From: a phage
Direction: 5' to 3' (one strand)
DNA length: 64,000 bases
Sequence record: OZ346201.1
Shown here: piece after piece, positions 26,215 through 37,012 of the stretch
Numbering within the stretch: position 1 is the stretch's first letter
How the letters are laid out: each line of letters opens with the position of its first letter
Program-made: the position numbers and the translations under genes
The notes under the pieces: generated by a model
Databases searched by the model: none
What the model saw: the letters and a program-made list of their open reading frames with translations, nothing else
Told to the model about the DNA's origin: nothing

Positions 26215-27420
26215 ATGATTTTCATCTACGAACATTTCAAAACCCGTAAAGAAGCACGAGACCGCCGTGCAGAACTTGAGAAGAAGGGTTTCACATGTGC
26301 CATTGAGAAAGGCGACACAACCTGGACACTGGCAGTGGGTGCCCCAGAGTTGTTCGATCCTGACCGTGACAGCGTCTGCTACACCCGTGAGGATTTTGAA
26401 ACCCGCGAAGAGGCCCGTTTATCCCGCTATGGATTGGAAGATAATGGTAAGTACGCCATGATCTTAGACTTAGGCGAAGGTTCCGTTAAACGTTGGGGCG
26501 TGGTATACCCACTGTGTGTTGTTCACGGTGTGGGGTTCACTGGGGTGGCAATCAAGTCAGAAGAACCTTTAGTAGAAGTTAAAGATCCGGTGCTGGAGGT
26601 GGTGAGCAGTGTGTCTCAGCAACAAACTCGAAGCATCGAGCCTTTGGTAGTTATTTGTGGGGAACTCCTCCAGATCACCTGCAACGAAGGCATTTTTGAA
26701 ATTCGCCGCAGCGAAAGTGAGGAAGTTTACCAGAAAGTCTTCGACCATATCTCTGTTCAGGAATATGACGAGGCAATTGGTGAAATCCTTGTCTGGCTGG
26801 AACGCAAGAATGAGTTCACCACACTTGCAGACAACCTGATCATGAAAGATGGTAAGCTCTACTACTACGGTGTAGAGATGCGATCCACCATTGCAAAGAA
26901 AATTGAGAAAGATTATGCAGACGGAACGCTGGATGACCGCTATGTGAAATTCCTCGTTCGCCTGCTACGCAATCCTTCTGCAAAATCTGTAAACATGCTC
27001 TACGATTTTATGCAGGCCAATGATATTCAGATTGCAGAAGATGGTCGAATCATTTGCTACAAAGGGGTTCAGTTTAACGGTAGCAAGTGGGTGGATTGGC
27101 ACAGTGGTAAAGTCCCACAATACCAAGGTGCTTTTGTATCCATGCCTCGTAACTTTGTAGAGGATGATCCTGAAGCTGCGTGCTCCTATGGCTTACACTG
27201 CGCCAGCAAAGAGTATGCGAAGAGCTACGGCACTGTAATGCCTGTCATGGTTGACCCTGCAGATGTGGTTAGTGTGCCATACCAACACAATAGCGCTAAG
27301 TGCCGTGCATGCCGCTATGAGATTGTGGTAGCTCCGGAAGCACGCAAGGACGGAGACCCGATTGAATACGTGGTTGACCGAGACGGTAACACTATCGACA
27401 TTCTTTACGAGGAGGCGTAA
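26215..27420 (+). CDS. rIIB: rIIB-like protein
   Basis: C-terminal block SYGLHCASKEY..ADVVSVPYQHNSAKCRACRYEIV matches T4 rIIB SYGLHVCSKSY..RDVVSIPIDYNDAKMRTCQYEVV; directly downstream of rIIA. Confidence 0.8.
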   Translation: MIFIYEHFKTRKEARDRRAELEKKGFTCAIEKGDTTWTLAVGAPELFDPDRDSVCYTREDFETREEARLSRYGLEDNGKYAMILDLGEGSVKRWGVVYPLCVVHGVGFTGVAIKSEEPLVEVKDPVLEVVSSVSQQQTRSIEPLVVICGELLQITCNEGIFEIRRSESEEVYQKVFDHISVQEYDEAIGEILVWLERKNEFTTLADNLIMKDGKLYYYGVEMRSTIAKKIEKDYADGTLDDRYVKFLVRLLRNPSAKSVNMLYDFMQANDIQIAEDGRIICYKGVQFNGSKWVDWHSGKVPQYQGAFVSMPRNFVEDDPEAACSYGLHCASKEYAKSYGTVMPVMVDPADVVSVPYQHNSAKCRACRYEIVVAPEARKDGDPIEYVVDRDGNTIDILYEEA

Positions 27421-28790
27421 TGGAAAAAGGGCAGTATGATGTAGGCACAGATGCTGCCCTCGTTGCAATCATGAGCGGTGAGAATGTCTTCGTTTCAGGA
27501 CCAGCAGGTTGTGGGAAGACGTACCTCATCAACATGATCCAGTCAATGTATGGAGACTCTTGCATAACGGTTGCCCCGACAGGGGTAGCCGCTTTAAACG
27601 TTAATGGAGCAACAGCACACCGAACCTTCGATCTTGCAGCAGGTGTGAGCATGGAGTCAGACTGGACCGCAATAAGGGCAAAAACAGCAAAGCCTTTGAA
27701 AAGCAAGGCATTTACCATCCTGATTATCGATGAAATCTCTATGATCCGTGCTGATAAGTTTATAGAGATGGATAGGAAACTTCGCTTCCTTCGAAAAAAT
27801 GACAAACCTTTCGGAGGCATACAGGTCATATTGTTTGGCGATTTTTACCAGGCACCTCCTGTTGTCTCTTCTATGGAGAAGGAAGCCTACTTCAACTTCT
27901 ACCATACAGACCTGTGTTGCTATACCGAATCTTGGAAAGAGCTTGACCTCCACAACATAGCCCTAATAGATCAGTTCCGACAGGAGTCTATTCGATTTGC
28001 CACAATGCTCAACTGTGTTCGTGAGGGTCGTCGCATAAAAGAGGTTGTAGCAGAACTTAATGCTCGCTGTTACAAAGGCGGTGTACCAACAGACGCTCTC
28101 ACAATTTGCGCCACCAACAAACAAGCAGAGGAAGTGAACAGAAGGTTCTATGATGCCATCAACGCCCCGGAGAAGGTATACACTGGGGAAATGAAGGGTA
28201 AGTTTCCCTCCACCCTGCCAGTTGAGCAGGAGATGAAGTTGAAAATTGGCATGAAAGTTATGATAACCGCCAACGATGTTGACCCGACGCACAAAGTACC
28301 TTATTATGTTAACGGAACACGTGCCACAATTGTTAAATTTAAGAACAAGGCGGTGGTGGTAGAGCTTGAAGATGGAACACAGGTTGACATAGAGCAGAGG
28401 TTGTGGGAGAATAACGAGTATAAGCCATCTCAGAGATACAACATTGCAGAAAGGAAGATGGAGAAGTTTATAGAGAGGGTAGTGATTGGGTCATACAAGC
28501 AACTTCCTCTGAAATCTGGGTACGCCGTAACATCTCATAAAAGTCAAGGACTTACGCTAGATTGTTACAACCTAGACCTTGGAAAGAACGGAGCTTTCTC
28601 TCCTGGGATGACGTATGTCGCTTTGAGCAGAGTTAAGACAATACAAGGAATAAACTTGTTGCGTCCACTAAGAGAAGTTGACATTATTGTTGACCCGCGA
28701 GTCGTAGAGTTTTACAATACAACATTCCCTGACTTAGACAAAATTGTCAGGAAAGATTTTGAAACCAGAGCCGAAGAGGGGGGCGTATGA
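27420..28790 (+). CDS. dda: Dda-like SF1 DNA helicase
   Basis: Walker A GPAGCGKT, Walker B IIDEISM, C-terminal VTSHKSQGLTLD and MTYVALSRVKT motifs as in T4 Dda. Confidence 0.75.
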   Translation: MEKGQYDVGTDAALVAIMSGENVFVSGPAGCGKTYLINMIQSMYGDSCITVAPTGVAALNVNGATAHRTFDLAAGVSMESDWTAIRAKTAKPLKSKAFTILIIDEISMIRADKFIEMDRKLRFLRKNDKPFGGIQVILFGDFYQAPPVVSSMEKEAYFNFYHTDLCCYTESWKELDLHNIALIDQFRQESIRFATMLNCVREGRRIKEVVAELNARCYKGGVPTDALTICATNKQAEEVNRRFYDAINAPEKVYTGEMKGKFPSTLPVEQEMKLKIGMKVMITANDVDPTHKVPYYVNGTRATIVKFKNKAVVVELEDGTQVDIEQRLWENNEYKPSQRYNIAERKMEKFIERVVIGSYKQLPLKSGYAVTSHKSQGLTLDCYNLDLGKNGAFSPGMTYVALSRVKTIQGINLLRPLREVDIIVDPRVVEFYNTTFPDLDKIVRKDFETRAEEGGV

Positions 28791-29128
28791 GTTTGTGGAG
28801 AAATATCGTTAACTACGTGTGTGGCAATCCAACTCCTGAAGAGAAGGATGTTGTGATTCACGATTTTACTAAAAGATCTCGTGAAAAAGATCTACTGCTA
28901 ACAAAGGTGACTGATAAAGATCCTGCAGTAGGGGACTGGGCAGGTTTTGCATTCACATCGGACAAATACACCTTTAACAAAGGTGACTACCTTGTTGTGG
29001 ATTTTAACGAAGACATCGAGGGTGCTGAACCTTACTATCAGACCCTTATTGTTGCAGGGTGTGTTGATCTCTCTGCAGGCATGCACAGTTTGATTCTTTT
29101 TGAGCTTGACTCTGAAGACCTTGAGTAG
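28787..29128 (+). CDS. hypothetical protein
   Basis: 113-aa ORF overlapping helicase stop. Confidence 0.5.
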   Translation: MSLWRNIVNYVCGNPTPEEKDVVIHDFTKRSREKDLLLTKVTDKDPAVGDWAGFAFTSDKYTFNKGDYLVVDFNEDIEGAEPYYQTLIVAGCVDLSAGMHSLILFELDSEDLE

Positions 29129-29189
29129 TAAGATGTGAGTATAAAGGGGAGGCCTCCTCCCCACAAAAAACTAAGGAGAGCACCAAACG

Positions 29190-30518
29190 ATGAGCAAAAC
29201 CAAATTAGAACTTACCTGGATAGGTAAAAACGAGCGCAAAAAATTAGAGCCACACATTTTGTTAGAAGACCCGAGCAAGTCTTATCACGCCAGCCAAAAA
29301 GTGACCGAAAACGATATTTTTGATAATAAACTGATTTTTGGCGATAACTTATTAGCATTGAAGGCGCTAGAGCAAGAATATGCAGGCAAAGTGAAGTGTG
29401 TTTACATAGACCCACCATTCAACACCGGGAGGGCTTTTGAGCACTACGATGATAGTCTGGAGCATTCCATTTGGCTGGGCTTAATGAGGGATAGGTTAGA
29501 AATAATTCGTAATCTTCTAAGTGATGACGGGGTAATATTCGTTCACTTAGATGATTGCGAAATGGCGTATTTAAAAGTTTTGATGGACGAGATTTTTGGT
29601 CGTGCAAATCAGTTAAATACCATATCGATGACCACAAATTCCCCTTCGGGATTTAAGGCAACAGGAGCCACAGTTTTCTCCACAGCAAACTTTTTGCTTG
29701 TATATGCAAAAGATCGCACCCAGAAACCGCTTAACAAAATCTATATACCTAAAGGGTATGATACCGGATATAACAAATACCTATTAAACCCGGATGATCA
29801 TTATAAAAATTGGACGTGGTGCGGTATTGCCGATGCGTTTGCAAAGGCCAATGGCTATAAAGATGCAAAAGAAGCCAAGAAAAAACTGCCTGACACATTC
29901 GATGATGAATTAGCACAATTTGCAATTGATAATGCAGAACGTGTATTTCAATCTGTTGCAATTGGTGGTGGTGCTAAAATAAAGAGAAAAGAAACTATAG
30001 AGAAGTCAAAGAAAGATAGGGATAAGGTTTATGTACATCCAAATGAGGATGTTGAAGGATTTTATATCGCAAATGGTAGGCAAATGGTCTTTTACTCCAA
30101 CAGGCTTTTGGAAATTGACGGTGATATGCAACCTGCGGAACTAATAACTGATGTTTGGACAGACATTAGTTGGAATGGAATAGCAAATGAAGGCGGCGTT
30201 AGTTTCAAAAATGGGAAAAAACCAGAAGCGCTTTTGAAGCGGATTTTCGAAATGTGTACGCGAGAAGGTGATTTGGTATTGGATTCATTCGGTGGTTCGG
30301 GAACTACTGCCGCTGTAGCTCACAAGATGAAAAGACGTTGGATCTCCATCGAGATTGGTGATCATTGCCATACCCATATTATTCCGCGCTTGGAAAAAGT
30401 GATCGATGGGGAAGATCAAGGTGGTATTTCTAAGTCTGTAAACTGGCAAGGTGGTGGTGGCTTCCGTTATTACAAACTTGCCCCGACCTTAATTGCGAAA
30501 GATAAGTCTGATCAATAA
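29190..30518 (+). CDS. DNA methyltransferase, beta-class amino-MTase (N6-adenine or N4-cytosine)
   Basis: Catalytic DPPF (..VYIDPPFNTG..) precedes AdoMet motif FGGSGTT; SD AAGGAGA. Confidence 0.8.
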   Translation: MSKTKLELTWIGKNERKKLEPHILLEDPSKSYHASQKVTENDIFDNKLIFGDNLLALKALEQEYAGKVKCVYIDPPFNTGRAFEHYDDSLEHSIWLGLMRDRLEIIRNLLSDDGVIFVHLDDCEMAYLKVLMDEIFGRANQLNTISMTTNSPSGFKATGATVFSTANFLLVYAKDRTQKPLNKIYIPKGYDTGYNKYLLNPDDHYKNWTWCGIADAFAKANGYKDAKEAKKKLPDTFDDELAQFAIDNAERVFQSVAIGGGAKIKRKETIEKSKKDRDKVYVHPNEDVEGFYIANGRQMVFYSNRLLEIDGDMQPAELITDVWTDISWNGIANEGGVSFKNGKKPEALLKRIFEMCTREGDLVLDSFGGSGTTAAVAHKMKRRWISIEIGDHCHTHIIPRLEKVIDGEDQGGISKSVNWQGGGGFRYYKLAPTLIAKDKSDQ

Positions 30519-30531
30519 AGAGTACAATCAA

Positions 30532-30837
30532 ATGATGAAACGTTATAAACCATACACTTTTGAAATCGATTTCGAACTTGACGATATGTTCACTGTAGAA
30601 GCTCAGGCAGTTGTCCAGTTGCCAGACCCGGAGTGCCGTGATTCTGATGTTGACTATTACGGATTTAGACAGATCACTGATGTGCATGTTTACCACAACG
30701 GTGAAGAGGTGGACTTCCACCAACTGCCAAACGATATTCGCCACTCAATTTACAAACGTGCAGCCCGTGAACTAGAGTCCTATCTGGATGCAGCGACGAC
30801 AGCAGCTGCATTTGCCGAAGAAGTGGGAGGTTTCTGA
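30532..30837 (+). CDS. hypothetical protein
   Basis: ATG at 30532 after the MTase stop preferred to track start 30493. Confidence 0.5.
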   Translation: MMKRYKPYTFEIDFELDDMFTVEAQAVVQLPDPECRDSDVDYYGFRQITDVHVYHNGEEVDFHQLPNDIRHSIYKRAARELESYLDAATTAAAFAEEVGGF

Positions 30838-31235
30838 TGATTACAGGTGTGAAGATTCTCCAATACCACTTAACCAAATTGGAAGATGCTGAAAAAGAGC
30901 TTGCAGAAGTTCTGAATAGTGGATATACTTTGCTATCATGCGCCTGCTCAGACACCTACGTTGTGTGGACACTTATCCGGAAGGAAGAGCCTGCAGGGAT
31001 CTTGGTGCCAAACCCTAAGATTATTAGTGAGGTGGATGACTATTCCCAGGACGGCCTGCCAGAAGGCTGGGAAGTATGGGAAGGTGGTGAAAACCCTGCA
31101 CCAGGTAAGTGGGTAAAATATAAACTACGTAGTGGTGCACAGTACGCTGACTACTCTGATGACCTAGACTGGAGTCATTCTTCACCAGGATCGTCTGCAA
31201 GTTCATATGATATCGTTGCTTTTCAGGAAGAATAA
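30837..31235 (+). CDS. hypothetical protein
   Basis: 132-aa ORF, ATGA overlap. Confidence 0.5.
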   Translation: MITGVKILQYHLTKLEDAEKELAEVLNSGYTLLSCACSDTYVVWTLIRKEEPAGILVPNPKIISEVDDYSQDGLPEGWEVWEGGENPAPGKWVKYKLRSGAQYADYSDDLDWSHSSPGSSASSYDIVAFQEE

Positions 31236-31247
31236 GGAGATAGTGTT

Positions 31248-31730
31248 ATGTCAGCTTTTATGTGGAAAGTAGGTTACGCAGCTCCTGAAATGTGTGAGGC
31301 TTGCTTTGTGAAAATAGGCCGCGAGGATATCGACAAAGTGATCCTTAAGTTTCGTGATGTGGCTGTGATCGGCAACCGAGTGCTTAAGCACTTAAAGAAT
31401 TTGAAGCTCACCAAAAAGAAATTCTTCGGGCTTTTCGAAGAGAAAGTTGATGCTTGGACCCATTGCATTCAGGAAGCTAAATCTCACTACAGCGCTATCG
31501 TTACCCCAGAACGGGTAGCCAAGATGGAAGGATTCATCAACAGCACAGAGTTTGAGTGCCTGAAAGCTGCACTTGATAGTTATCCGAAATGCCTCAAGCA
31601 CTTGGACAAGTATGTAGAAAAGGATGGGGAAATGTACCTAACCCTGGACGCATATTATGAGATGCAAGAAATTTTAAATTTAGATTTGACATTGGTATCC
31701 ACCGAGTATACAATAGGTATCCGGGTTTAA
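31248..31730 (+). CDS. hypothetical protein
   Basis: 160-aa ORF, SD AAGGAGA. Confidence 0.55.
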   Translation: MSAFMWKVGYAAPEMCEACFVKIGREDIDKVILKFRDVAVIGNRVLKHLKNLKLTKKKFFGLFEEKVDAWTHCIQEAKSHYSAIVTPERVAKMEGFINSTEFECLKAALDSYPKCLKHLDKYVEKDGEMYLTLDAYYEMQEILNLDLTLVSTEYTIGIRV

Positions 31731-31736
31731 CACTAG

Positions 31737-31763
31737 GCCCTGCCCGAAAGGGTGGGGCTTTTT
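31737..31763 (+). terminator. rho-independent terminator (same sequence family as 42127-42155)
   Basis: GCCCTGCCC-GAAA-GGGTGGGGC hairpin followed by TTTTT. Confidence 0.8.
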
Positions 31764-31781
31764 GCATTAGGAGACAGCAAA

Positions 31782-32546
31782 TTGAAATTTATCTACAAAG
31801 AACACTACCACAAAGGTGTTGTGTGGAGCCTGTTTGACGGATCTGGTGGTGCAGTCATTGACTGGGCAAAAGCTGGGTATCTGTGCCTGTGCTTTAATGC
31901 AGAAGGTGCTGATCACGGCAGTTATGCAGAGGTGATAACCGATCATCCCAACATTCACTATGTGGATTATTGGATTGACCCATGGTTCCCTCAGGAAACT
32001 TTTTGCATGTACCCAGCTCCAGACTTTATTCTTGCATTTCCTCCGTGCACGCATTTAGCGGTATCAGGTGCTGCACATTTTAAGAAAAAGCTGGCTAAGG
32101 ATCCTTTGATCCAAATTAATGCTGTAAAGGATGCTCGGGTTGCGGAAGAGTTGGGAGAGATTTACGATTGCCCGTGGCATGTAGAGAATCCTGTAGGGGT
32201 TATGTCCACACTGTGGCGAAAACCTGATTACCGTTTTCATCCTTCGGATTATGGTGGGTATTTACCGGAGGATGATGTAAACCCCTGGTTTCCTGAATTT
32301 ATAGCTCCACGTGATGCCTATCCAAAAATAACTTGCGGCTGGATAGGCAATGGATTTATAATCCCGGCCACAAAACCTGTCCCGCAAATAGTTGACGCGG
32401 TTAGCGGGTATTCCATGCAACACGCCAAGCTGGGTGGAAAGAGTGCAAGAACGAAGATGATCCGAAGCCTCACGCCACGTGGCTGGGCAAAAGCCGTATT
32501 CTTAGCAAACGAGCCTGTAGTAAGGAGCAGAATTAATGGGAAGTAA
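31782..32546 (+). CDS. short DNA cytosine-C5 methyltransferase-like protein
   Basis: Motif I-like LFDGSGG, motif IV-like FPPC (catalytic Cys), motif VI-like HVENPVG; TTG start at 31782 with AGGAGA 7 nt upstream preferred over track GTG at 31752, which lies inside the terminator hairpin. Confidence 0.6.
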   Translation: MKFIYKEHYHKGVVWSLFDGSGGAVIDWAKAGYLCLCFNAEGADHGSYAEVITDHPNIHYVDYWIDPWFPQETFCMYPAPDFILAFPPCTHLAVSGAAHFKKKLAKDPLIQINAVKDARVAEELGEIYDCPWHVENPVGVMSTLWRKPDYRFHPSDYGGYLPEDDVNPWFPEFIAPRDAYPKITCGWIGNGFIIPATKPVPQIVDAVSGYSMQHAKLGGKSARTKMIRSLTPRGWAKAVFLANEPVVRSRINGK

Positions 32547-34614
32547 ATTTATGGCATCTGCATACAACCGTTTCGGTGAGCCAAACCCGAAAGCAACTAA
32601 GTATAAAAGTGGGGGAAGTGTGAAACGAGACTATCGTGATGAAAAAGAGGTTGAAACTGTAGAGACTGTTTTAGAAAATACTAAAATCGTCCCTGTCCCA
32701 CAACAAAATATCGGTCTGATGGCTGCACAATATTTTGGTGTGCGATCAGCATTATCCCAAGAAGATGGTGTGACAGTCACTGCAACATATTTCCCATATT
32801 ACGACCGCTACGGAAATCTGTCCGGTTTCAAAAAGCGTGACTGGACGATTCCTAAAGAGCAAAGAGGCCATTTCTCCGTTGTTGGCATAGTAAAGGCTAA
32901 CTCTCAGATGTTTGGTCAAAAGCTGTGTGCATCTTCCAACAACCGTAAGCAGATTAACGTTTGTGAGGGAGAAGGTGATGTTATTGCAGCATGGCAGGCT
33001 GCATATCAGATACAAGTAAAAGGGATTCTCACCAACGCTAAAGCCCCGGCAAAGGTGAAACAGTGGGCTAAAGAGGTCCAGGACGGGATCGATGCAGTTA
33101 TCAACGGTGGCGATCTGGCAGGAAAACCATGCCTGCCTTTTGTTGGAATTAACTGTGGATGTGCAAACGCAGTAGATACTTTTGCAAACAATGAGAAGTT
33201 TATCCGTAGCTATGGAACAGTTGTGCTGGCAATGGATAACGATGCAGCTAACGAGGTAGAGAAGCAAAAACACGTCATTAAAGGTGTTGAGGCCACGCAC
33301 AATATCGCAGCATTTTTGATGGCTGATAACGTTTACCACGTAGAATACCCTGGTGAAGTAAATGACCCTGACGGGGTAAAAGATATCCGTGACATGCTGA
33401 AGGCTAAAAAGCTGGAAGATATTGTCAACATGTTCCGGCACCCTGTTAAATATGTGCCTGATGCTGTGTCGGATTTAGAAGACTTCTCTATCGAGTCTTT
33501 GCGGAAAAAGACTTCCAACGGGGTAGATATCAGCGCAGAGTTCCCAAAACTGCAAAAAATGCTAAAAGGCTTGCACAAAGGGACACTCGTAATGCTTACA
33601 GGGCCATCAGGGGGCGGTAAAACAACTGTAGCTAAAAAACTGGAACATTGTATTGCAAGATACCTAATGGACCCGACATGCCCGAAGGCTGATGACTATG
33701 AAGAGGATGATCGTCTATGTATGATCCATCTTGAGGAGGACCCGGAGGAAGCAATTAACTCCTTGTATGCAAACCAGTTAGGGTTTGATGTTAAAGAGTT
33801 TGTTGAAGATCCTAGCCAGTTTTTAACTGATCAAGAACACGCAGAGATTCACCAATCATGGGCAAAAGCTGGAAAAATCAAAGTGTTCAAACATTTCGGA
33901 TCTATTCCGGTGGACGAGTTGATTACCAAGCTTAAGCAAATGGTTTGCCTGTACCATTGCCGTTATATTGTGCTGGATCACCTGTCCATGGTAATTTCAG
34001 GGCTTAATGTTAAGGATGAGCGAAAAGAACTGGACATGGCTATGACTCAGCTGGCTGCGTTTTGTAAGCAGTTTAACGTGTTTATCTTAGTGATCGCTCA
34101 CCTCAAACGTACAGAGATTGTGCCTCCTAAGGACAAGGATGGTAACCCGTTACCTTTCTGGTATCCTGTGCGAAAAGAGAATTTGCGAGGATCGGCGGGG
34201 CTTGAACAGTTGAGTTGGGTAGTCATAGGTGTCGAGGCCGAAGAAATGGTGGATCGTTCTCGTGGACGTGTCCGTCTGGTAGGTCTTAAAAACCGTCCAG
34301 CAAAAACTTTAGGTATTGCTGACACTTTGGTTATGGACCCGCACACAGGTAAGTTCCATGATGCCAGTAATTGGTACTGGGACAAAGAAATGCAAATGTT
34401 TACAGACGGAGAAGGTGGGGAGGTTGTTTGGAGACCTCAGGCTATGTTTGAGGATCAGGAGCATGCAGTTGTAGAAACACCTATGGGCAAGGTTGTGGCT
34501 GATAAGGTTGTAACTCCTACTGTTAAGCCTGTTGACACGCAGGAAGACCTCCAGTACGATGATCCATCCTCTGACCCGGTCCCTGGTTTTGAGGATGATG
34601 AAACGCCTTTTTAA
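32536..34614 (+). CDS. bifunctional primase-helicase (T7 gp4-like: TOPRIM plus DnaB-type helicase)
   Basis: TOPRIM acidic motif VVLAMDNDAANE; helicase Walker A LTGPSGGGKTT and DnaB-like C-terminal motifs. Confidence 0.8.
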   Translation: MGSKFMASAYNRFGEPNPKATKYKSGGSVKRDYRDEKEVETVETVLENTKIVPVPQQNIGLMAAQYFGVRSALSQEDGVTVTATYFPYYDRYGNLSGFKKRDWTIPKEQRGHFSVVGIVKANSQMFGQKLCASSNNRKQINVCEGEGDVIAAWQAAYQIQVKGILTNAKAPAKVKQWAKEVQDGIDAVINGGDLAGKPCLPFVGINCGCANAVDTFANNEKFIRSYGTVVLAMDNDAANEVEKQKHVIKGVEATHNIAAFLMADNVYHVEYPGEVNDPDGVKDIRDMLKAKKLEDIVNMFRHPVKYVPDAVSDLEDFSIESLRKKTSNGVDISAEFPKLQKMLKGLHKGTLVMLTGPSGGGKTTVAKKLEHCIARYLMDPTCPKADDYEEDDRLCMIHLEEDPEEAINSLYANQLGFDVKEFVEDPSQFLTDQEHAEIHQSWAKAGKIKVFKHFGSIPVDELITKLKQMVCLYHCRYIVLDHLSMVISGLNVKDERKELDMAMTQLAAFCKQFNVFILVIAHLKRTEIVPPKDKDGNPLPFWYPVRKENLRGSAGLEQLSWVVIGVEAEEMVDRSRGRVRLVGLKNRPAKTLGIADTLVMDPHTGKFHDASNWYWDKEMQMFTDGEGGEVVWRPQAMFEDQEHAVVETPMGKVVADKVVTPTVKPVDTQEDLQYDDPSSDPVPGFEDDETPF

Positions 34615-34672: not shown

Positions 34673-37012
34673 ATGAGTATGTGGTCTTTCGATTTTGAGT
34701 CATCCGGTTTGCTGGAAGACCCAGATCTTTATTATCACTGCGGTCTGTTTAAAGAGCTGAATAAGAACCGTTTTATGCTGTTCCTTCCTCTAAATGACCG
34801 CACACACTACTCCGAGGAGGATATAGAAAAGGCTAAGAACTTCATTCTGTCAAAGAAAACTCTTTATAAAGATTTTGAAGTTCGCATAGCAGATTTTTCG
34901 GAGTTGGAAGGTTGGCTTACAGGCAATTCTGACTGGTCACCAACAGCTTTGAACTGCCATAACTGCTACAGTTATGACTTTATGCTAATGGAAAGATTAT
35001 CCGGTATTCATTTTGATATGTTCCGTGATCCTAAATGCATGGGGACTATCAACGACCACCAGGTTAACCTGTTTGATACGTTGGCTATGAGCCGAATCTT
35101 GTGGCCTGATCGCCCTTTACCAAAAGGTTGTCCGGACGCTGTATTCAACCCGGTTACTAAGAAAATGCAACCTGTTGGTCCTCACGGCCTTATGGCATGG
35201 GGCTACGCCCTTGGTAACCAGAAAGTTCAAATTGATGACTGGCGCGATCTTCCGTTGTGGAAGTATGTGGATCGTGTATTCGAGGACGTTATCATCCAGG
35301 AGCTGCTCTGGAAAGAGCTGGTAGCGGAATCAAAAGGTGTATTCTACGGCAAATCTGACATGCAGAACTTTATGTACGATCCAGCCAAAGAGAAGCCGAA
35401 AGGGTTCAAGAAGATCACCTGGAAGAACGCATTACGTCGAGGCATGCTGCAGCACTTCCTGATGGAGCTGCAGGCCCGTCAGGGTGTATACTTCGACATA
35501 GATGGAGCTATTGCTTTACGTGACCGTTGCGATGCGTGGATGAAAGAAATCGCTGATCGTGTTGAACCACAACTACCTTTAAAAGAGCTGTCAATGTCTC
35601 AGCGGCCCAAGTTCCCTGAAAAGCCGTTTAACCAAGACGGGACAATCTCTAATAATGGTTGGAAATGGTTAAAAGATAAGCTTGGCTATCCTGTAGACAT
35701 GAGTGCTTTAGAGTTCAAAGCCCCGCCTAAGCGAGCATTTACCTCTACAGGAGATGTCAGCAAGATGGGGATAAAATGGTGTGAAGAGATGGGCTGCAAA
35801 GACCCCGATAAGATGGCTGATTTCTTGAGAGGCTATATTAAGGGCACCTCCACACCACAACCCTTACCTAAAGAGCTGATGGATCAGGCAATAAGTGATC
35901 TGCAGCAGAAGCGAATGCCTGACTGCAAGATACCTATGAAAATCAGCAATCAGGACGACATCAAGCGATACCTAATCAGTGCTGGTTGGCTCCCAACAAT
36001 GTGGAGAACTAAAGATGTAACTAAAGACAGCAAGAAGAAAGCTTTACCTGATGCAGATGTTGATGCACGAGTATATGCATATATGGACGAGCTTTTGGAG
36101 TCAGAGTATTGTGACCTAATTATCAACTTCTGGAACAAAACTGATGCTAAGTTCCAGACAACCGTGCACAAGTTCCGAAGCTTTCCTAACTCCGAAAGGA
36201 TTAAAAAGGAAGTATTCGGGAAAATACGTAGAAAAGCCAGGGCACTTATTACTTCTCCGCAACTGAAAGATACGTTTGGACACCTATGCCCAAATCTTGA
36301 AAAATTGAACGGAGAGATGGCTAAAGATATCGTCTTGTGGTTATCATTGCGAAACCGCAGATCGGTCCTTGATCCAATCAAGGAGGATAAGGTTGATACT
36401 GGTCTTCTTAATCACCCACGTTTGAAGATTGACCATAAGCTTCCTGCTAAAAGCTCTGGATTAACAAACACTTCCAGACAGAAACACAGTATTTGTGCAA
36501 ACATGCCTAAACCATCTCCTAAAGTGGTTATGGGTAAAGAGATGCGTAGTCTGTGGGGTGTTCCTCCGGGATACTTTGAGATTGGTATTGACGGGTCCAA
36601 CTTAGAACAGCTTATCGGGGCTTGGGGTGCCTTTGAGTTCGACAACGGCCTGTATTATGATGTTGTAAGTAACGGAGACGCACACCAAAACAATGCTGAG
36701 GCATATACAAAAGTGGCAGGCAGAGAGGTGTCCCGTAACGACGGTAAACCTATCACGTATGGGGTTATGTACGGGGCACAAAAAGATAAAGTTGCAGATA
36801 TGTTGGACATCTCCCCAGAGTTACAGGTGTTTGATGGACTCTGGGATGCCAACCCAGGTCTTAAGGGGCGCAAAGAGGATCTGGAGAAATTCTGGAAGCA
36901 ACAGGTAAGAAGTTTATCTACTCTTTTGATGGTCATGCTATCTGGACCCGATCTAAACACTCTTTACTTAATGCATACCAACAAAATGGCGGTGCATCGT
37001 TGTGTGACTTAG
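34673..37012 (+). CDS. DNA polymerase, family A, with 3'-5' exonuclease (reading frame breaks near 36900)
   Basis: Exo I FDFESSGL; Pol A motif A DGSNLEQ and motif B REVSRNDGKPITYGVMYGAQ; polymerase similarity continues in another frame from about 36901 to the stop at 37093-37095 (..FDGHAIW..NAYQQNGGASLCD..WYDEGV..). Confidence 0.75.
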   Translation: MSMWSFDFESSGLLEDPDLYYHCGLFKELNKNRFMLFLPLNDRTHYSEEDIEKAKNFILSKKTLYKDFEVRIADFSELEGWLTGNSDWSPTALNCHNCYSYDFMLMERLSGIHFDMFRDPKCMGTINDHQVNLFDTLAMSRILWPDRPLPKGCPDAVFNPVTKKMQPVGPHGLMAWGYALGNQKVQIDDWRDLPLWKYVDRVFEDVIIQELLWKELVAESKGVFYGKSDMQNFMYDPAKEKPKGFKKITWKNALRRGMLQHFLMELQARQGVYFDIDGAIALRDRCDAWMKEIADRVEPQLPLKELSMSQRPKFPEKPFNQDGTISNNGWKWLKDKLGYPVDMSALEFKAPPKRAFTSTGDVSKMGIKWCEEMGCKDPDKMADFLRGYIKGTSTPQPLPKELMDQAISDLQQKRMPDCKIPMKISNQDDIKRYLISAGWLPTMWRTKDVTKDSKKKALPDADVDARVYAYMDELLESEYCDLIINFWNKTDAKFQTTVHKFRSFPNSERIKKEVFGKIRRKARALITSPQLKDTFGHLCPNLEKLNGEMAKDIVLWLSLRNRRSVLDPIKEDKVDTGLLNHPRLKIDHKLPAKSSGLTNTSRQKHSICANMPKPSPKVVMGKEMRSLWGVPPGYFEIGIDGSNLEQLIGAWGAFEFDNGLYYDVVSNGDAHQNNAEAYTKVAGREVSRNDGKPITYGVMYGAQKDKVADMLDISPELQVFDGLWDANPGLKGRKEDLEKFWKQQVRSLSTLLMVMLSGPDLNTLYLMHTNKMAVHRCVT

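Follow-up and report, generated by a model that had tools for sequence, protein, structure and literature searches.

The Methyltransferase Locus

The stretch of phage DNA analysed here (record OZ346201.1; 64,000 nucleotides, hereafter the window) belongs to a Vequintavirus, an rV5-like phage of E. coli, and is 98.9% identical to phage JES2013 across the whole region considered. It carries an adenine and a cytosine-C5 methyltransferase gene spaced by 1.2 kb, with ORFs B, C and D between them (Table 1). An earlier note on this DNA had pointed out the two genes, their motifs and the three ORFs, all of which were found where it placed them on rechecking, and had classed the first gene as a beta-class amino-methyltransferase and the second as C5-like. 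Both assignments hold, the former through a PF01555 match and the position of DPPF ahead of FGGSGTT, the latter through the motifs FDGSGG, FPPC and ENPVG and a C5-methyltransferase fold. Both genes are ordinary ones, already annotated in public genomes. The locus is very probably best read as two unrelated orphan methyltransferase genes, a captured, truncated Mod gene and a compact Dcm-like C5 gene, with unrelated phage ORFs lying between. The present analysis shows the relationships of the genes, the layout of the locus, the junctions of the insertion, the purifying selection, the fold and the spread among phages; the activity of the window's two methylases, the sequences they target and what the phage gains from them are inferred.

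Table 1. Genes, motifs and signals of the methyltransferase locus (positions in the window).
Feature	Position	Strand	Details
ORF A	28787..29128	+	113 aa, pI 4.35; phrog_11869 (2e-78)
Left direct repeat CAAACGATGA	29184..29193	+	spans ATG of Mod-like gene
Mod-like gene	29190..30518	+	ATG start, 442 aa; orphan, C-terminally truncated Type III Mod-like N6-adenine methyltransferase, beta class
DPPF, Mod-like protein	29409-29420	+	aa 74-77
FGGSGTT, Mod-like protein	30288-30308	+	aa 367-373
Right direct repeat CAAATGATGA	30529..30538	+	spans ATG ATG start of ORF B
ORF B	30535..30837	+	100 aa, pI 4.46; phrog_4240
ORF C	30837..31235	+	132 aa, pI 4.37; phrog_11995 (7e-90)
ORF D	31248..31730	+	160 aa; phrog_12900
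Sigma-70-type promoter-like site	31686..31714	+	TTGACA-17-TACAAT, 11/12 consensus matches; inside 3' end of ORF D
Terminator-like GC-rich hairpin	31735..31760	+	between ORF D and C5 gene
Shine-Dalgarno AGGAGA	31769..31774	+	7 nt 5' of TTG of C5 gene
C5 gene	31782..32546	+	TTG start, 254 aa; compact 'Dcm-like' DNA cytosine-C5 methyltransferase
Motif I FDGSGG, C5 protein	31833-31850	+	aa 18-23
Motif IV FPPC, C5 protein	32037-32048	+	aa 86-89 (Cys89)
Motif VI ENPVG, C5 protein	32184-32198	+	aa 135-139 (Glu135)
RSLTPRG, C5 protein	32463-32483	+	C-terminal
DNA primase/helicase gene	32536..34614	+	phrog_239, 6e-160

The observation that the C5 gene begins with a TTG just after a terminator is borne out, the hairpin being followed by AGGAGA and the TTG at 31782, in agreement with the relatives. 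The hairpin comprises 11 pairs, a GAAA loop and a T-run (-24.5 kcal/mol), and its z-score of -1.7 against shuffled sequences is only modestly unusual. The TTG start is supported because the representative of P0001, the 90%-identity cluster that holds the window's protein, is the 254-aa form, and because the N-terminus of P0002, an 80% identical relative, matches (MDFIYKD vs MKFIYKE in the window); an alternative GTG start at 31752 falls within the hairpin. In the ECML-10 record, the site equivalent to the promoter-like sequence is labelled 'Sigma70-type promoter'. Since the ATG of the primase/helicase gene overlaps the final 11 nt of the C5 gene, co-transcription and translational coupling of these two genes are suggested.

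Origin of the Mod-Like Gene

The Mod-like protein has the beta-class motif order, and scores 146 bits against PF01555 in a Pfam profile search (cut-off 26.7). It matches the PADLOC model MTase_III PDLC03636 at 2e-207, only over model positions 2-444 of 575, and the Mod subunits 6k0w and 4zcf in the PDB (E 1e-23 to 2e-28). These two structures, the Mod of H. pylori and of EcoP15I/EcoP1I, respectively, are likewise beta-class N6-adenine enzymes in which motif IV comes ahead of motif I and the recognition region lies centrally; they are distant relatives of 618-644 aa, partnered with Res, and their specificities are not transferable. A much closer relative is the 568-aa Mod of E. coli (WP_024226319.1), which matches the same PADLOC model from end to end (944 bits) and to which the window's gene is 95.5% identical in nucleotides and 97% in amino acids over codons 2-440 of 568. 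The recognition region lies wholly inside this near-identical stretch, and hence the same specificity is expected. The E. coli gene is followed after 21 nt by a 912-aa ResIII/Type III REase gene, the pair sits in a defence island adjoining tRNA-Sec, and mod is found in 24-29 of 5,426 complete E. coli genomes. In contrast, the phage copy is located in the phage replication-gene region, has no res partner and lacks the C-terminal 128 aa, a domain that the bacterial relatives keep. Because full-length homologues of 570-600 aa are widespread in bacteria, the truncated phage form is taken to be derived.

The junctions of the phage gene are consistent with capture. An 11-bp deletion leads into a KDKSDQ-stop tail, and past this stop about 20 nt more of host-gene homology precede the phage backbone; the same short tail, KD(K/N)SDQ-stop, ends all nine copies compared, the window's included. 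The gene forms a 1.35-kb cassette flanked by the imperfect 10-bp direct repeats CAAACGATGA and CAAATGATGA, and Mod-less phages have one repeat copy only, with AAACGATGA directly followed by AACGTTATAAACC. The cassette is precisely absent in Bas57, Bas59 and ECML-10, and in Bas49 an apparent frameshift breaks the gene in two. About 88 records carry it at 90% identity or more, versus about 117 for the C5 gene. Part of mod was very probably captured by the phage from a chromosomal Type III R-M system of E. coli, the C-terminal residues being lost through partial capture and the deletion that created the stop codon. The retained core and recognition region would methylate adenine N6 in the host system's own site, and phage DNA marked in this way as self would escape the host Res endonuclease; the missing C-terminal part may also block assembly with host Res.

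Role and Activity of the Methylases

Phage orphan methylases are thought to pre-empt host restriction, and retrons have since been found to sense them. T4 Dam, P1 Dmt and the GATC enzyme of phage Bas51 are, like the enzymes of this locus, phage methylases without a nuclease partner, their folds and classes being different. Self-protective DNA modification is most likely the role at least of the adenine enzyme. Alternatively, both methylases might serve phage physiology, namely replication, packaging, gene timing or mismatch-repair avoidance, which we regard as rather unlikely. Vequintavirus genomes consistently retain the C5 gene, which is apparently coupled to the primase/helicase gene, as would suit such a role, and conservation is as strong in its putative recognition segment as in the catalytic core, whereas the recognition domains of R-M methylases are hypervariable. 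In addition, the Vequintavirinae, described as exceptionally R-M-sensitive (PMC8594841), remain highly sensitive. In the BASEL plating data, the presence of Mod is unlinked to resistance to the six R-M systems tested, and Mod-positive and Mod-negative isolates differ in no consistent way. None of these six systems is known to be blocked by CCWGG-type 5mC. The Mod gene, however, is dispensable in nature and derived from an R-M system, and evasion of restriction therefore fits it better than physiology does.

A second alternative, that the truncated gene is an inactive remnant heading for loss and producing no methylation, is less probable still. Type III Mod enzymes work as dimers, and with some 128 C-terminal residues gone and an 11-bp frameshifting deletion in place, sequence alone allows for a loss of activity; the repeated loss or breakage of the gene (Bas49, Bas57, Bas59, ECML-10) points in the same direction. 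Published nanopore data for Bas51, whose Mod is 99% identical, list two m6A motifs, GATC and GTAC, and no third. GATC methylation belongs there to a separate 177-aa enzyme (bas51_0176, with D69, D79 and T83-NPPY; PMC12548924) encoded about 40 kb away from the Mod-like gene, and GTAC is a palindrome, unlike the usual target of a Type III Mod. Against the remnant, the catalytic motifs are all preserved, as is the recognition region, and homologues of about 440 aa occur elsewhere too. The same data also contain about 350-580 'other' m6A calls without an assigned motif, a 5-bp asymmetric site being expected, by our arithmetic, about 270 times in 140 kb. Finally, dN/dS is 0.07 relative to E. coli and 0.02-0.12 among the phage copies (dS up to 0.15), and the truncated tail shared by all nine copies means that this purifying selection has acted since the truncation.

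The Intervening ORFs

ORF A, whose start overlaps the stop of a PIF1/Dda-like helicase gene, and ORF C gave nothing in Pfam, NCBIfam and PADLOC profile searches. ORF B starts at the ATG at 30532/30535 rather than at the TTG at 30493 of the mechanical ORF list. Its occurrences comprise 116 Vequintavirus records, none below 95% identity, and four Erwinia phage records at less than 60% (35.5% in the two listed), and a search of 5.8 billion proteins returned nothing beyond these two groups. ORF D occurs only in Vequintavirus (116 records, again none below 95% identity), and an AlphaFold model built from its single sequence is too poor to use (pLDDT 40.7). In the profile searches that the earlier note had proposed, ORFs B, C and D matched only PHROGs without assigned function, apart from two weak matches of ORF B to PHROGs labelled 'DNA methyltransferase' (3.6e-5 and 0.009). 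The PHROG of ORF A likewise has no assigned function.

The weak ORF B matches are one reason for considering the anti-restriction module that had been suggested, in which both methylases and ORFs B to D act jointly, the acidic ORFs serving, for example, as DNA mimics or as specificity or accessory factors. The genes are tightly packed on the same strand 5' of replication genes, and the products of ORFs A, B and C resemble anti-restriction proteins of the Ocr/ArdA type in their small size and acidity (pI 4.35-4.46), but small acidic proteins are common among phage early genes, and no ORF matches defence or anti-defence profiles in Pfam, NCBIfam or PADLOC. The Mod gene, an accessory acquisition, is present or absent as one precise cassette, and where it is absent ORFs A to D and the C5 gene stay behind, with ORFs B to D, near-exclusive to Vequintavirus, unchanged in position. 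ORFs B and D are, moreover, absent from the C5-gene neighbourhoods examined in Bas06, phage nieznany and a Seunavirus, and ORF D is set apart from the C5 gene by the terminator-like hairpin and the promoter-like site. Joint action is thus very unlikely; ORFs B to D are phage genes unrelated to both methylases and nearly confined to the genus, and the proximity of the two methylase genes results solely from the insertion of one close to the other.

The Compact C5 Methyltransferase

Throughout Vequintavirus the C5 gene lies beside the primase/helicase gene, as it does in the single Seunavirus genome inspected, which lacks Mod and keeps the order helicase, C5 gene, primase/helicase. In a PHROG profile search its product matches phrog_757 'DNA methyltransferase' over the full length (5e-87), a family found in 1,504 phage records and comprising 3,546 clusters at 90% identity and 2,039 at 50%, across which motifs I, IV and VI are invariant. 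The protein had been called unusually short; its 254 aa are confirmed, are very few for a C5 enzyme, and are typical of a family whose full-length members mostly have 210-260 aa. A failure to match C5-methyltransferase profiles had been held to speak against the assignment, and the window's sequence itself has no match in Pfam (PF00145 included), NCBIfam or PADLOC. This is outweighed by two results: 21 of 30 relatives match PF00145 (best E 1.3e-6), and the top matches of fold searches are all C5 methyltransferases (DNMT3A/B, M.HhaI and M.HaeIII); a family profile reaches only E ~0.25 against C5 methyltransferases in the PDB. The catalytic domains of mammalian DNMT3A and DNMT3B share 12-15% sequence identity with the protein, which implies no evolutionary closeness, and the DNMT3 enzymes are oligomers with regulatory domains and CpG targets. 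Cys89 would attack C6 of a flipped-out cytosine, Glu135 would protonate N3, and the methyl group of AdoMet would pass to C5, with DNA probably recognised through a reduced target-recognition segment of some 70 residues, about as large as the one in DNMT3A/B. The enzyme would be expressed with the replication genes and place 5mC on newly made phage DNA.

A relative studied by experiment is the 236-aa Dcm of phage K42/KarlJaspers (Bas06), which is 54% identical over 235 aa (E 2e-86), and whose C82, E128 and K175 are the counterparts of C89, E135 and K182 with identical catalytic spacing, K176 being replaced by Ile183. K42 Dcm puts 5mC on retron msDNA, as shown by LC-MS with a synthetic 5mC standard, loses this activity in the C82A/E128A/K175A/K176A mutant, and triggers retron Ec86; its CCWGG specificity was assumed and tested only indirectly (bioRxiv 10.1101/2023.08.16.553469). 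Methylation activity and retron triggering are demonstrated for K42 Dcm only. Also very unlikely is the suggestion that the window's protein has a different substrate, acting on RNA as DNMT2 does or using carboxy-SAM, which CmoA provides in E. coli, as phage CmoX does: the lack of a Pfam match and an unrecognisable classical motif X (GNAV) would allow it, but K42 Dcm makes 5mC on DNA in vivo in dependence on the conserved Cys, Glu and Lys, the closest structural matches are DNA enzymes, and CmoX is longer (8yf3 chain, 333 residues). The specificity of K42 Dcm is not transferable, since the variable loop (residues 196-214) belongs to the 'GYSxQH' type in the window and to the 'NPGW' type in K42. 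The two proteins, both of about 240 aa, share PHROG 757, and neither has a large recognition domain or a Pfam match. K42 is a T1-like siphovirus in which dcm lies among small early genes and does not adjoin a primase/helicase gene, and the BASEL genomes label both enzymes 'Dcm-like C5 cytosine methyltransferase'.

Gene Order, Phage Identity and Existing Annotation

The 3.76-kb region under study (28787–32546) is 97–99% identical to the corresponding part of more than 80 rV5-like E. coli myophage genomes of the genus Vequintavirus, among which phage JES2013 is the best match (98.9% identity). Both methylase genes are of known kinds, already so named in public records, and one of them has a studied homologue. 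In the genomes of the BASEL collection they are labelled 'putative N6 adenine methyltransferase' (the Mod-like gene) and 'Dcm-like C5 cytosine methyltransferase' (the C5 gene), and further public records use 'type III restriction-modification system methylation subunit' or 'DNA methyltransferase'. The present analysis confirms these GenBank annotations, and its significance beyond such housekeeping is small; what it adds is where the Mod cassette, an insert of about 1.35 kb, came from, how it is joined to the phage genome and how its presence varies, together with evidence of ongoing selection on its gene and the separation of this gene from a retron-triggering GATC enzyme. The minus strand of the region holds only short ORFs without sign of being genes, and scans for Rfam families and repeats returned nothing meaningful.

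Gene order around the two methylase genes, from first to last
Feature	Coordinates	Strand	Position in order
rIIB-like gene	26215-27420	+	first
PIF1/Dda-like helicase	27420-28790	+	
ORF A	28787-29128	+	
Mod-like methylase	29190-30518	+	
ORF B	30535-30837	+	
ORF C	30837-31235	+	
ORF D	31248-31730	+	
C5 methylase	31782-32546	+	
primase/helicase	32536-34614	+	
DNA polymerase	34673-37012	+	last

Several minor features of this stretch deserve mention. The DNA polymerase ORF encodes 779 aa, against a gene of 2,778 bp (925 aa) in phage MaxBurger, and its last ~35 residues look out of frame, for which a sequencing error, a frameshift or the presence of an intervening element may be responsible. A small domain with a weak SPOR-like match (xFxTxxEAxxxxxxL...G) occurs twice at the start of the rIIB-like protein, and the N-terminal segment of ORF C looks similar to this domain. 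In some isolates the replication cluster carries insertions of putative homing endonuclease genes, the sites of which vary: directly 3' of the C5 gene in EmilHeitz (comparison locus L003:5842-6324) and HeinrichReichert (match H90), and 3' of the primase/helicase gene in WalterGehring (L017:7434-8001). At least 16 'Campylobacter phage' records (matches H7, H9-H18 and others; GenBank MG0656xx), which give Campylobacter jejuni as host, are 97–98% identical to E. coli Vequintavirus across the region; these are probably mislabelled, or derived from contaminating coliphages.

A Truncated Type III Mod Gene of Host Origin

The adenine methylase has the motif order of the beta class, as the earlier note had read from the sequence, with DPPF (aa 74–77) before FGGSGTT (aa 367–373). 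It matches PF01555 at 146 bits, against a cut-off of 26.7, retains the central recognition region, and matches solved Mod subunits (6k0w, and EcoP15I 4zcf). The PADLOC model for Type III methylases is matched at 2e-207 over only positions 2–444 of 575, so that, by coverage of this model, the full-length Mod architecture including the C-terminal region is absent from the phage protein; a full-length E. coli Mod spans positions 1–572. No ResIII gene adjoins the phage gene, the neighbors being the PIF1/Dda-like helicase, small ORFs and the primase/helicase.

Database searches yielded hundreds of bacterial homologues of 570–600 aa at 60–77% identity, and one E. coli chromosomal protein of 567 aa that is 97% identical across the whole of the phage protein; at the DNA level, the phage gene and this E. 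coli mod gene are 95.5% identical. The parent gene was found in 24–29 of 5,426 complete E. coli genomes. In strain SMN152SH1 it lies in an island adjoining tRNA-Sec, where a 912-aa ResIII-domain gene, whose product matches the model for Type III restriction enzymes (9e-191), starts 21 nt downstream, and a DrmD-like SNF2 gene, AbiD and an HTH gene stand upstream. The HTH gene of this island (locus L019:4115-8943) is annotated as a component of a methylation-associated defense system (MADS), and a 206-aa protein without family match is also encoded there. The mod-res locus of this strain may be more than a plain Type III system, namely a composite defense locus. It was also compared with the ARMADA II system of the EHEC island OI-172, an identification that was rejected as the composition differs, with neither the DUF1998 helicase nor the UvrD-like gene present.

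An 11-bp deletion after AAGATAAGT shifts the reading frame of the phage copy, which then ends in KDKSDQ and a stop; homology to the E. coli mod gene persists over ~20 further nt, beyond which the sequence is phage backbone again. The cassette is flanked by CAAACGATGA (29184–29193) and CAAATGATGA (30529–30538), which are a duplication of the segment from ribosome site to ATG that precedes ORF B in cassette-less phages. ORF B starts at the ATG at 30532/30535, not at an upstream TTG, and its TTG-extended reading is residual mod sequence from the capture, read in a different frame. Taken together, sequence comparison identifies the adenine methylase as a truncated Type III Mod of host origin, traceable to a specific E. 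coli restriction-modification (R-M) gene. A GC-rich hairpin, GGGGAGGCCTCCTCCCC, lies at 29146–29162 between ORF A and the cassette; it is kept in Mod-less phages, and its only terminator score is for the minus strand, on which there is no evident gene.

Distribution, Selection and Proposed Role of the Mod-like Gene

The Mod-like gene is a polymorphic component of these genomes. It is precisely absent from Bas59 EduardKellenberger, Bas57 MaxTheCat and ECML-10, and at an identity of at least 90% it occurs in ~88 phage records, compared with ~117 for the C5 gene. In Bas49 EmilHeitz (L003:2501-3827) its alignment is broken in two, and the annotation covers just the 1,035 bp from an internal start; this looks like a frameshifted copy and a further sign of dispensability. 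The gene is, nevertheless, probably not a dead remnant: dN/dS is 0.07 relative to the E. coli gene and 0.02–0.12 among nine phage copies, values that are evidence for continuing selection, and all nine copies end in the same type of short truncated tail, KD(K/N)SDQ and stop.

Since few residues of the recognition region differ between the phage and host proteins, we infer that the phage protein has the specificity of the host Type III system. Its most likely use would be pre-emptive self-methylation of the phage DNA, by which the parent Type III system, and that particular system, would be defeated. The truncation itself may be adaptive, leaving a methylase that would no longer be able to assemble with the host Res; a literature search yielded no account of the Res-binding part of Mod, and this step is our own inference. 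The natural presence or absence of Mod among otherwise near-identical BASEL phages constitutes a ready-made test of such 'stolen antidote' immunity evasion.

The Compact Cytosine-C5 Methylase

The second methylase starts, as had been suggested, at a TTG just behind a terminator-like element: an 11-bp GC-rich hairpin with a T-run occupies 31735–31760, and both the AGGAGA Shine-Dalgarno sequence and the TTG at 31782, 7 nt past it, lie 3' of this hairpin. The alternative GTG at 31752, used by some annotations, falls inside the hairpin, and the N-terminus M(K/D)FIYK is common to the relatives of the enzyme.

All three C5-like motifs that had been reported for this short ORF were recovered. Motif I (FDGSGG, aa 18–23) aligns with motif I of DNMT3B, S16, G20, S21 and G22 being at least 90% conserved in the family; motif IV (FPPC, aa 86–89), whose P87, P88 and putative catalytic C89 are invariant among 30 relatives, aligns with the PC of DNMT3B; and ENP (aa 135–137) of the motif VI sequence ENPVG, likewise invariant among the 30, corresponds to E128 of the K42 Dcm protein. 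The window protein has no Pfam, NCBIfam or PADLOC match. The earlier note counted a failure to match C5-MTase profiles among its refuting conditions, and for PF00145 the window protein indeed gives no match at E up to 1, while 21 of the 30 relatives do match at this threshold (best 1.3e-6). Sequence and profile searches against the PDB were not significant either (E 0.25 to 1), and for this reason a fold comparison was needed; the AlphaFold model built on the 30 relatives (pLDDT 90) predicts a C5-methyltransferase fold.

The suspicion that the ORF lacks room for a normal recognition domain was borne out. The stretch from the motif VIII-like DYGG segment to RSLTPRG and a C-terminal helix has only ~70 residues (161–232), and no sizeable recognition domain is present between motifs VIII and IX; a GNAV-type motif X is also absent, a C-terminal helix (233–253) standing in its place in the model. 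The putative recognition segment, which is about the size of its DNMT3A/B counterpart, is nearly as conserved as the catalytic core, even among phages of very different kinds, except for a variable stretch at 196–214.

The length of the enzyme is normal for its family. It matches phrog_757 at 5e-87 (residues 10–261 of the 264-aa reading, profile positions 3–226 of 247), most full-length members of which have 210–260 aa. Homologues form 3,546 clusters at 90% identity and 2,039 at 50%, and the family is present in 1,504 of 50,697 phage records, its carriers including T1-like phages, Dhillonvirus, Klebsiella phages, T4-like phages and phAPEC8-like phages.

This placement ties the short enzyme to a family with one experimentally studied member. 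Mutants of phage K42 that escape retron Ec86 map to a 711-bp 'dcm' gene, whose product puts 5mC on msDNA, as detected by LC-MS, whereas a C82A/E128A/K175A/K176A mutant does not; its resemblance to DNMT3A was noted by the preprint's authors (bioRxiv 10.1101/2023.08.16.553469). K42 is a relative of KarlJaspers/Bas06, and the Bas06 gene is exactly 711 bp long, its product being 54% identical to the window protein (E 2e-86). Residues C82, E128 and K175 of K42 Dcm are C89, E135 and K182 here, while K176 is replaced by Ile183, and the loop 196–214 differs between the two proteins. We conclude that the window protein should be a DNA cytosine-C5 methylase of the compact 'Dcm-like' family.

The main question raised is which sequence, and perhaps which form of DNA, is methylated by this compact family. 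E. coli K-12 MG1655, a strain that carries the host Dcm, bears on it. In the absence of the phage enzyme, msDNA from MG1655 was poor in 5mC, and expression of that enzyme was required for the retron to fire; CCWGG as the target of K42 Dcm was assumed by analogy with host Dcm, the sole support being a mutated motif in the msDNA (bioRxiv 10.1101/2023.08.16.553469). On account of these Ec86 data, the assumed nature of CCWGG, the conserved recognition segment and the coupling to the primase/helicase gene in Vequintavirinae, it is conceivable, if in our estimation rather unlikely, that the family is no simple copy of host Dcm, and has a distinct family-wide target and a role also beyond classical anti-restriction. 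Its members might then act on another or a degenerate motif, or on DNA in hairpin, single-stranded or replicating form.

Intervening Genes and the Proposed Module

The two methylases and the three ORFs between them had been proposed to form one module, a proposal that is not supported by comparison with related phages, in which the order A-B-C-D-C5 is the same with or without the Mod cassette. In a Seunavirus genome the C5 gene likewise lies between helicase and primase/helicase, with other small ORFs and without a Mod gene, and in a Phapecoctavirus genome and in Bas06 the neighbors of the C5-family gene are different again. A promoter-like site and a hairpin separate ORF D from the C5 gene, which overlaps the start of the primase/helicase gene by 11 nt.

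By tblastn, ORFs B and D occur in 116–120 records, almost only of Vequintavirus and nearly all at an identity of at least 95%, and a homology search of 5.8 billion proteins returned no relative of ORF B beyond itself. ORFs A–D have no Pfam, NCBIfam or PADLOC match, and their PHROG matches are to families without assigned function; some weak matches are to PHROGs that bear the label 'DNA ligase' or 'DNA methyltransferase'; the proteins concerned are very small, and these labels were judged unreliable. ORFs A–C are small and acidic, a property that would suit DNA-mimic anti-restriction proteins but does not count as evidence for them.

The interval 31686–31781 contains a strong sigma-70-like promoter (11 of 12 matches; an annotated promoter in ECML-10) upstream of the terminator-like hairpin, and transcripts from it would meet the hairpin and T-run ~15–40 nt on, before the C5 and primase/helicase genes. 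This unusual order could represent a leader or an attenuator; alternatively, the hairpin may just terminate the upstream genes.

Restriction Phenotypes

Vequintavirinae are exceptionally susceptible to R-M systems (BASEL paper, PMC8594841). The raw plating data of that study, covering six R-M systems, were taken as a natural experiment comparing phages with and without Mod.

Plating values of five BASEL phages on two of the six R-M systems (PMC8594841)
Phage	Mod	EcoCFT_II	EcoP1_I
Bas50	present	<1e-12 in most replicates (one 4e-6)	0.02-0.04
Bas51	present	1e-5 to 0.06 in most replicates (one <1e-12)	<1e-12
Bas52	present	<1e-12	0.02-0.04
Bas57	absent	<1e-12	0.1-0.4
Bas59	absent	<1e-12	0.001-0.004 in two replicates (one <1e-12)

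EcoRV blocks all five phages (<1e-12), and EcoRI reduces them ~1,000 to 10,000-fold. In these data, the presence of Mod tracks resistance to none of the six systems, and general protection from restriction is given by neither methylase. The proposed role of Mod is not contradicted by this outcome, because its parent system is not among the six R-M systems.

Retron Triggers and Adenine Marks

Phage methylases are relevant as triggers of retron defense, and a 2025 study (PMC12548924) showed that both the GATC m6A of Bas51 and the triggering of retrons Asa1 and Squ1 are due to an 'N6 adenine methyltransferase' of this phage. Bas51 is WalterGehring, whose Mod-like gene is 99% identical to that of the window and whose C5 protein is identical at 253 of 254 residues. 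The Mod-like protein was nonetheless rejected as the trigger, because its residues (D74-PPF, T79) do not agree with the escape mutations D69G, D79G and T83P, which correspond exactly to a 177-aa NPPY enzyme (bas51_0176/bas54_0170) encoded ~40 kb away, outside the window. The retron trigger and the Mod-like gene are different genes, and are not to be confused.

The nanopore data of the same study distinguish only three classes of m6A motif, namely GATC, GTAC and 'other', with 1,405, 509 and 576 methylated adenine positions in wild-type Bas51, and 35, 511 and 349 in the T83P mutant (PMC12548924). The GTAC counts of wild type and mutant (509 versus 511) therefore indicate that a second phage-dependent m6A activity exists in Bas51, acting at GTAC independently of the 177-aa enzyme. 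The window contains 317 GATC and 133 GTAC sites in 64 kb, which, scaled up, corresponds to methylation of about all sites.

The GTAC site is palindromic, and such targets are unusual for Type III Mod enzymes. Outside the window, a 272-aa gamma-class enzyme (bas54_0191; MaxBurger, L012:20757-21575) has GNPPF at residue 85, a layout resembling that of the GTAC methylase M.HpyAXII (NPPY at residue 87). For both of these reasons the GTAC mark is more likely to come from this enzyme, and the target of the Mod-like protein, if it has any, would lie within the class 'other'. With the 177-aa NPPY and the 272-aa GNPPF enzymes, Vequintavirus genomes have four methyltransferase genes, not two. In the 64 kb of the window, base composition predicts 241 sites each for GTAC and GATC and 82 for CCWGG, against 133, 317 and 133 observed, so that GTAC is under-represented and the other two are over-represented.
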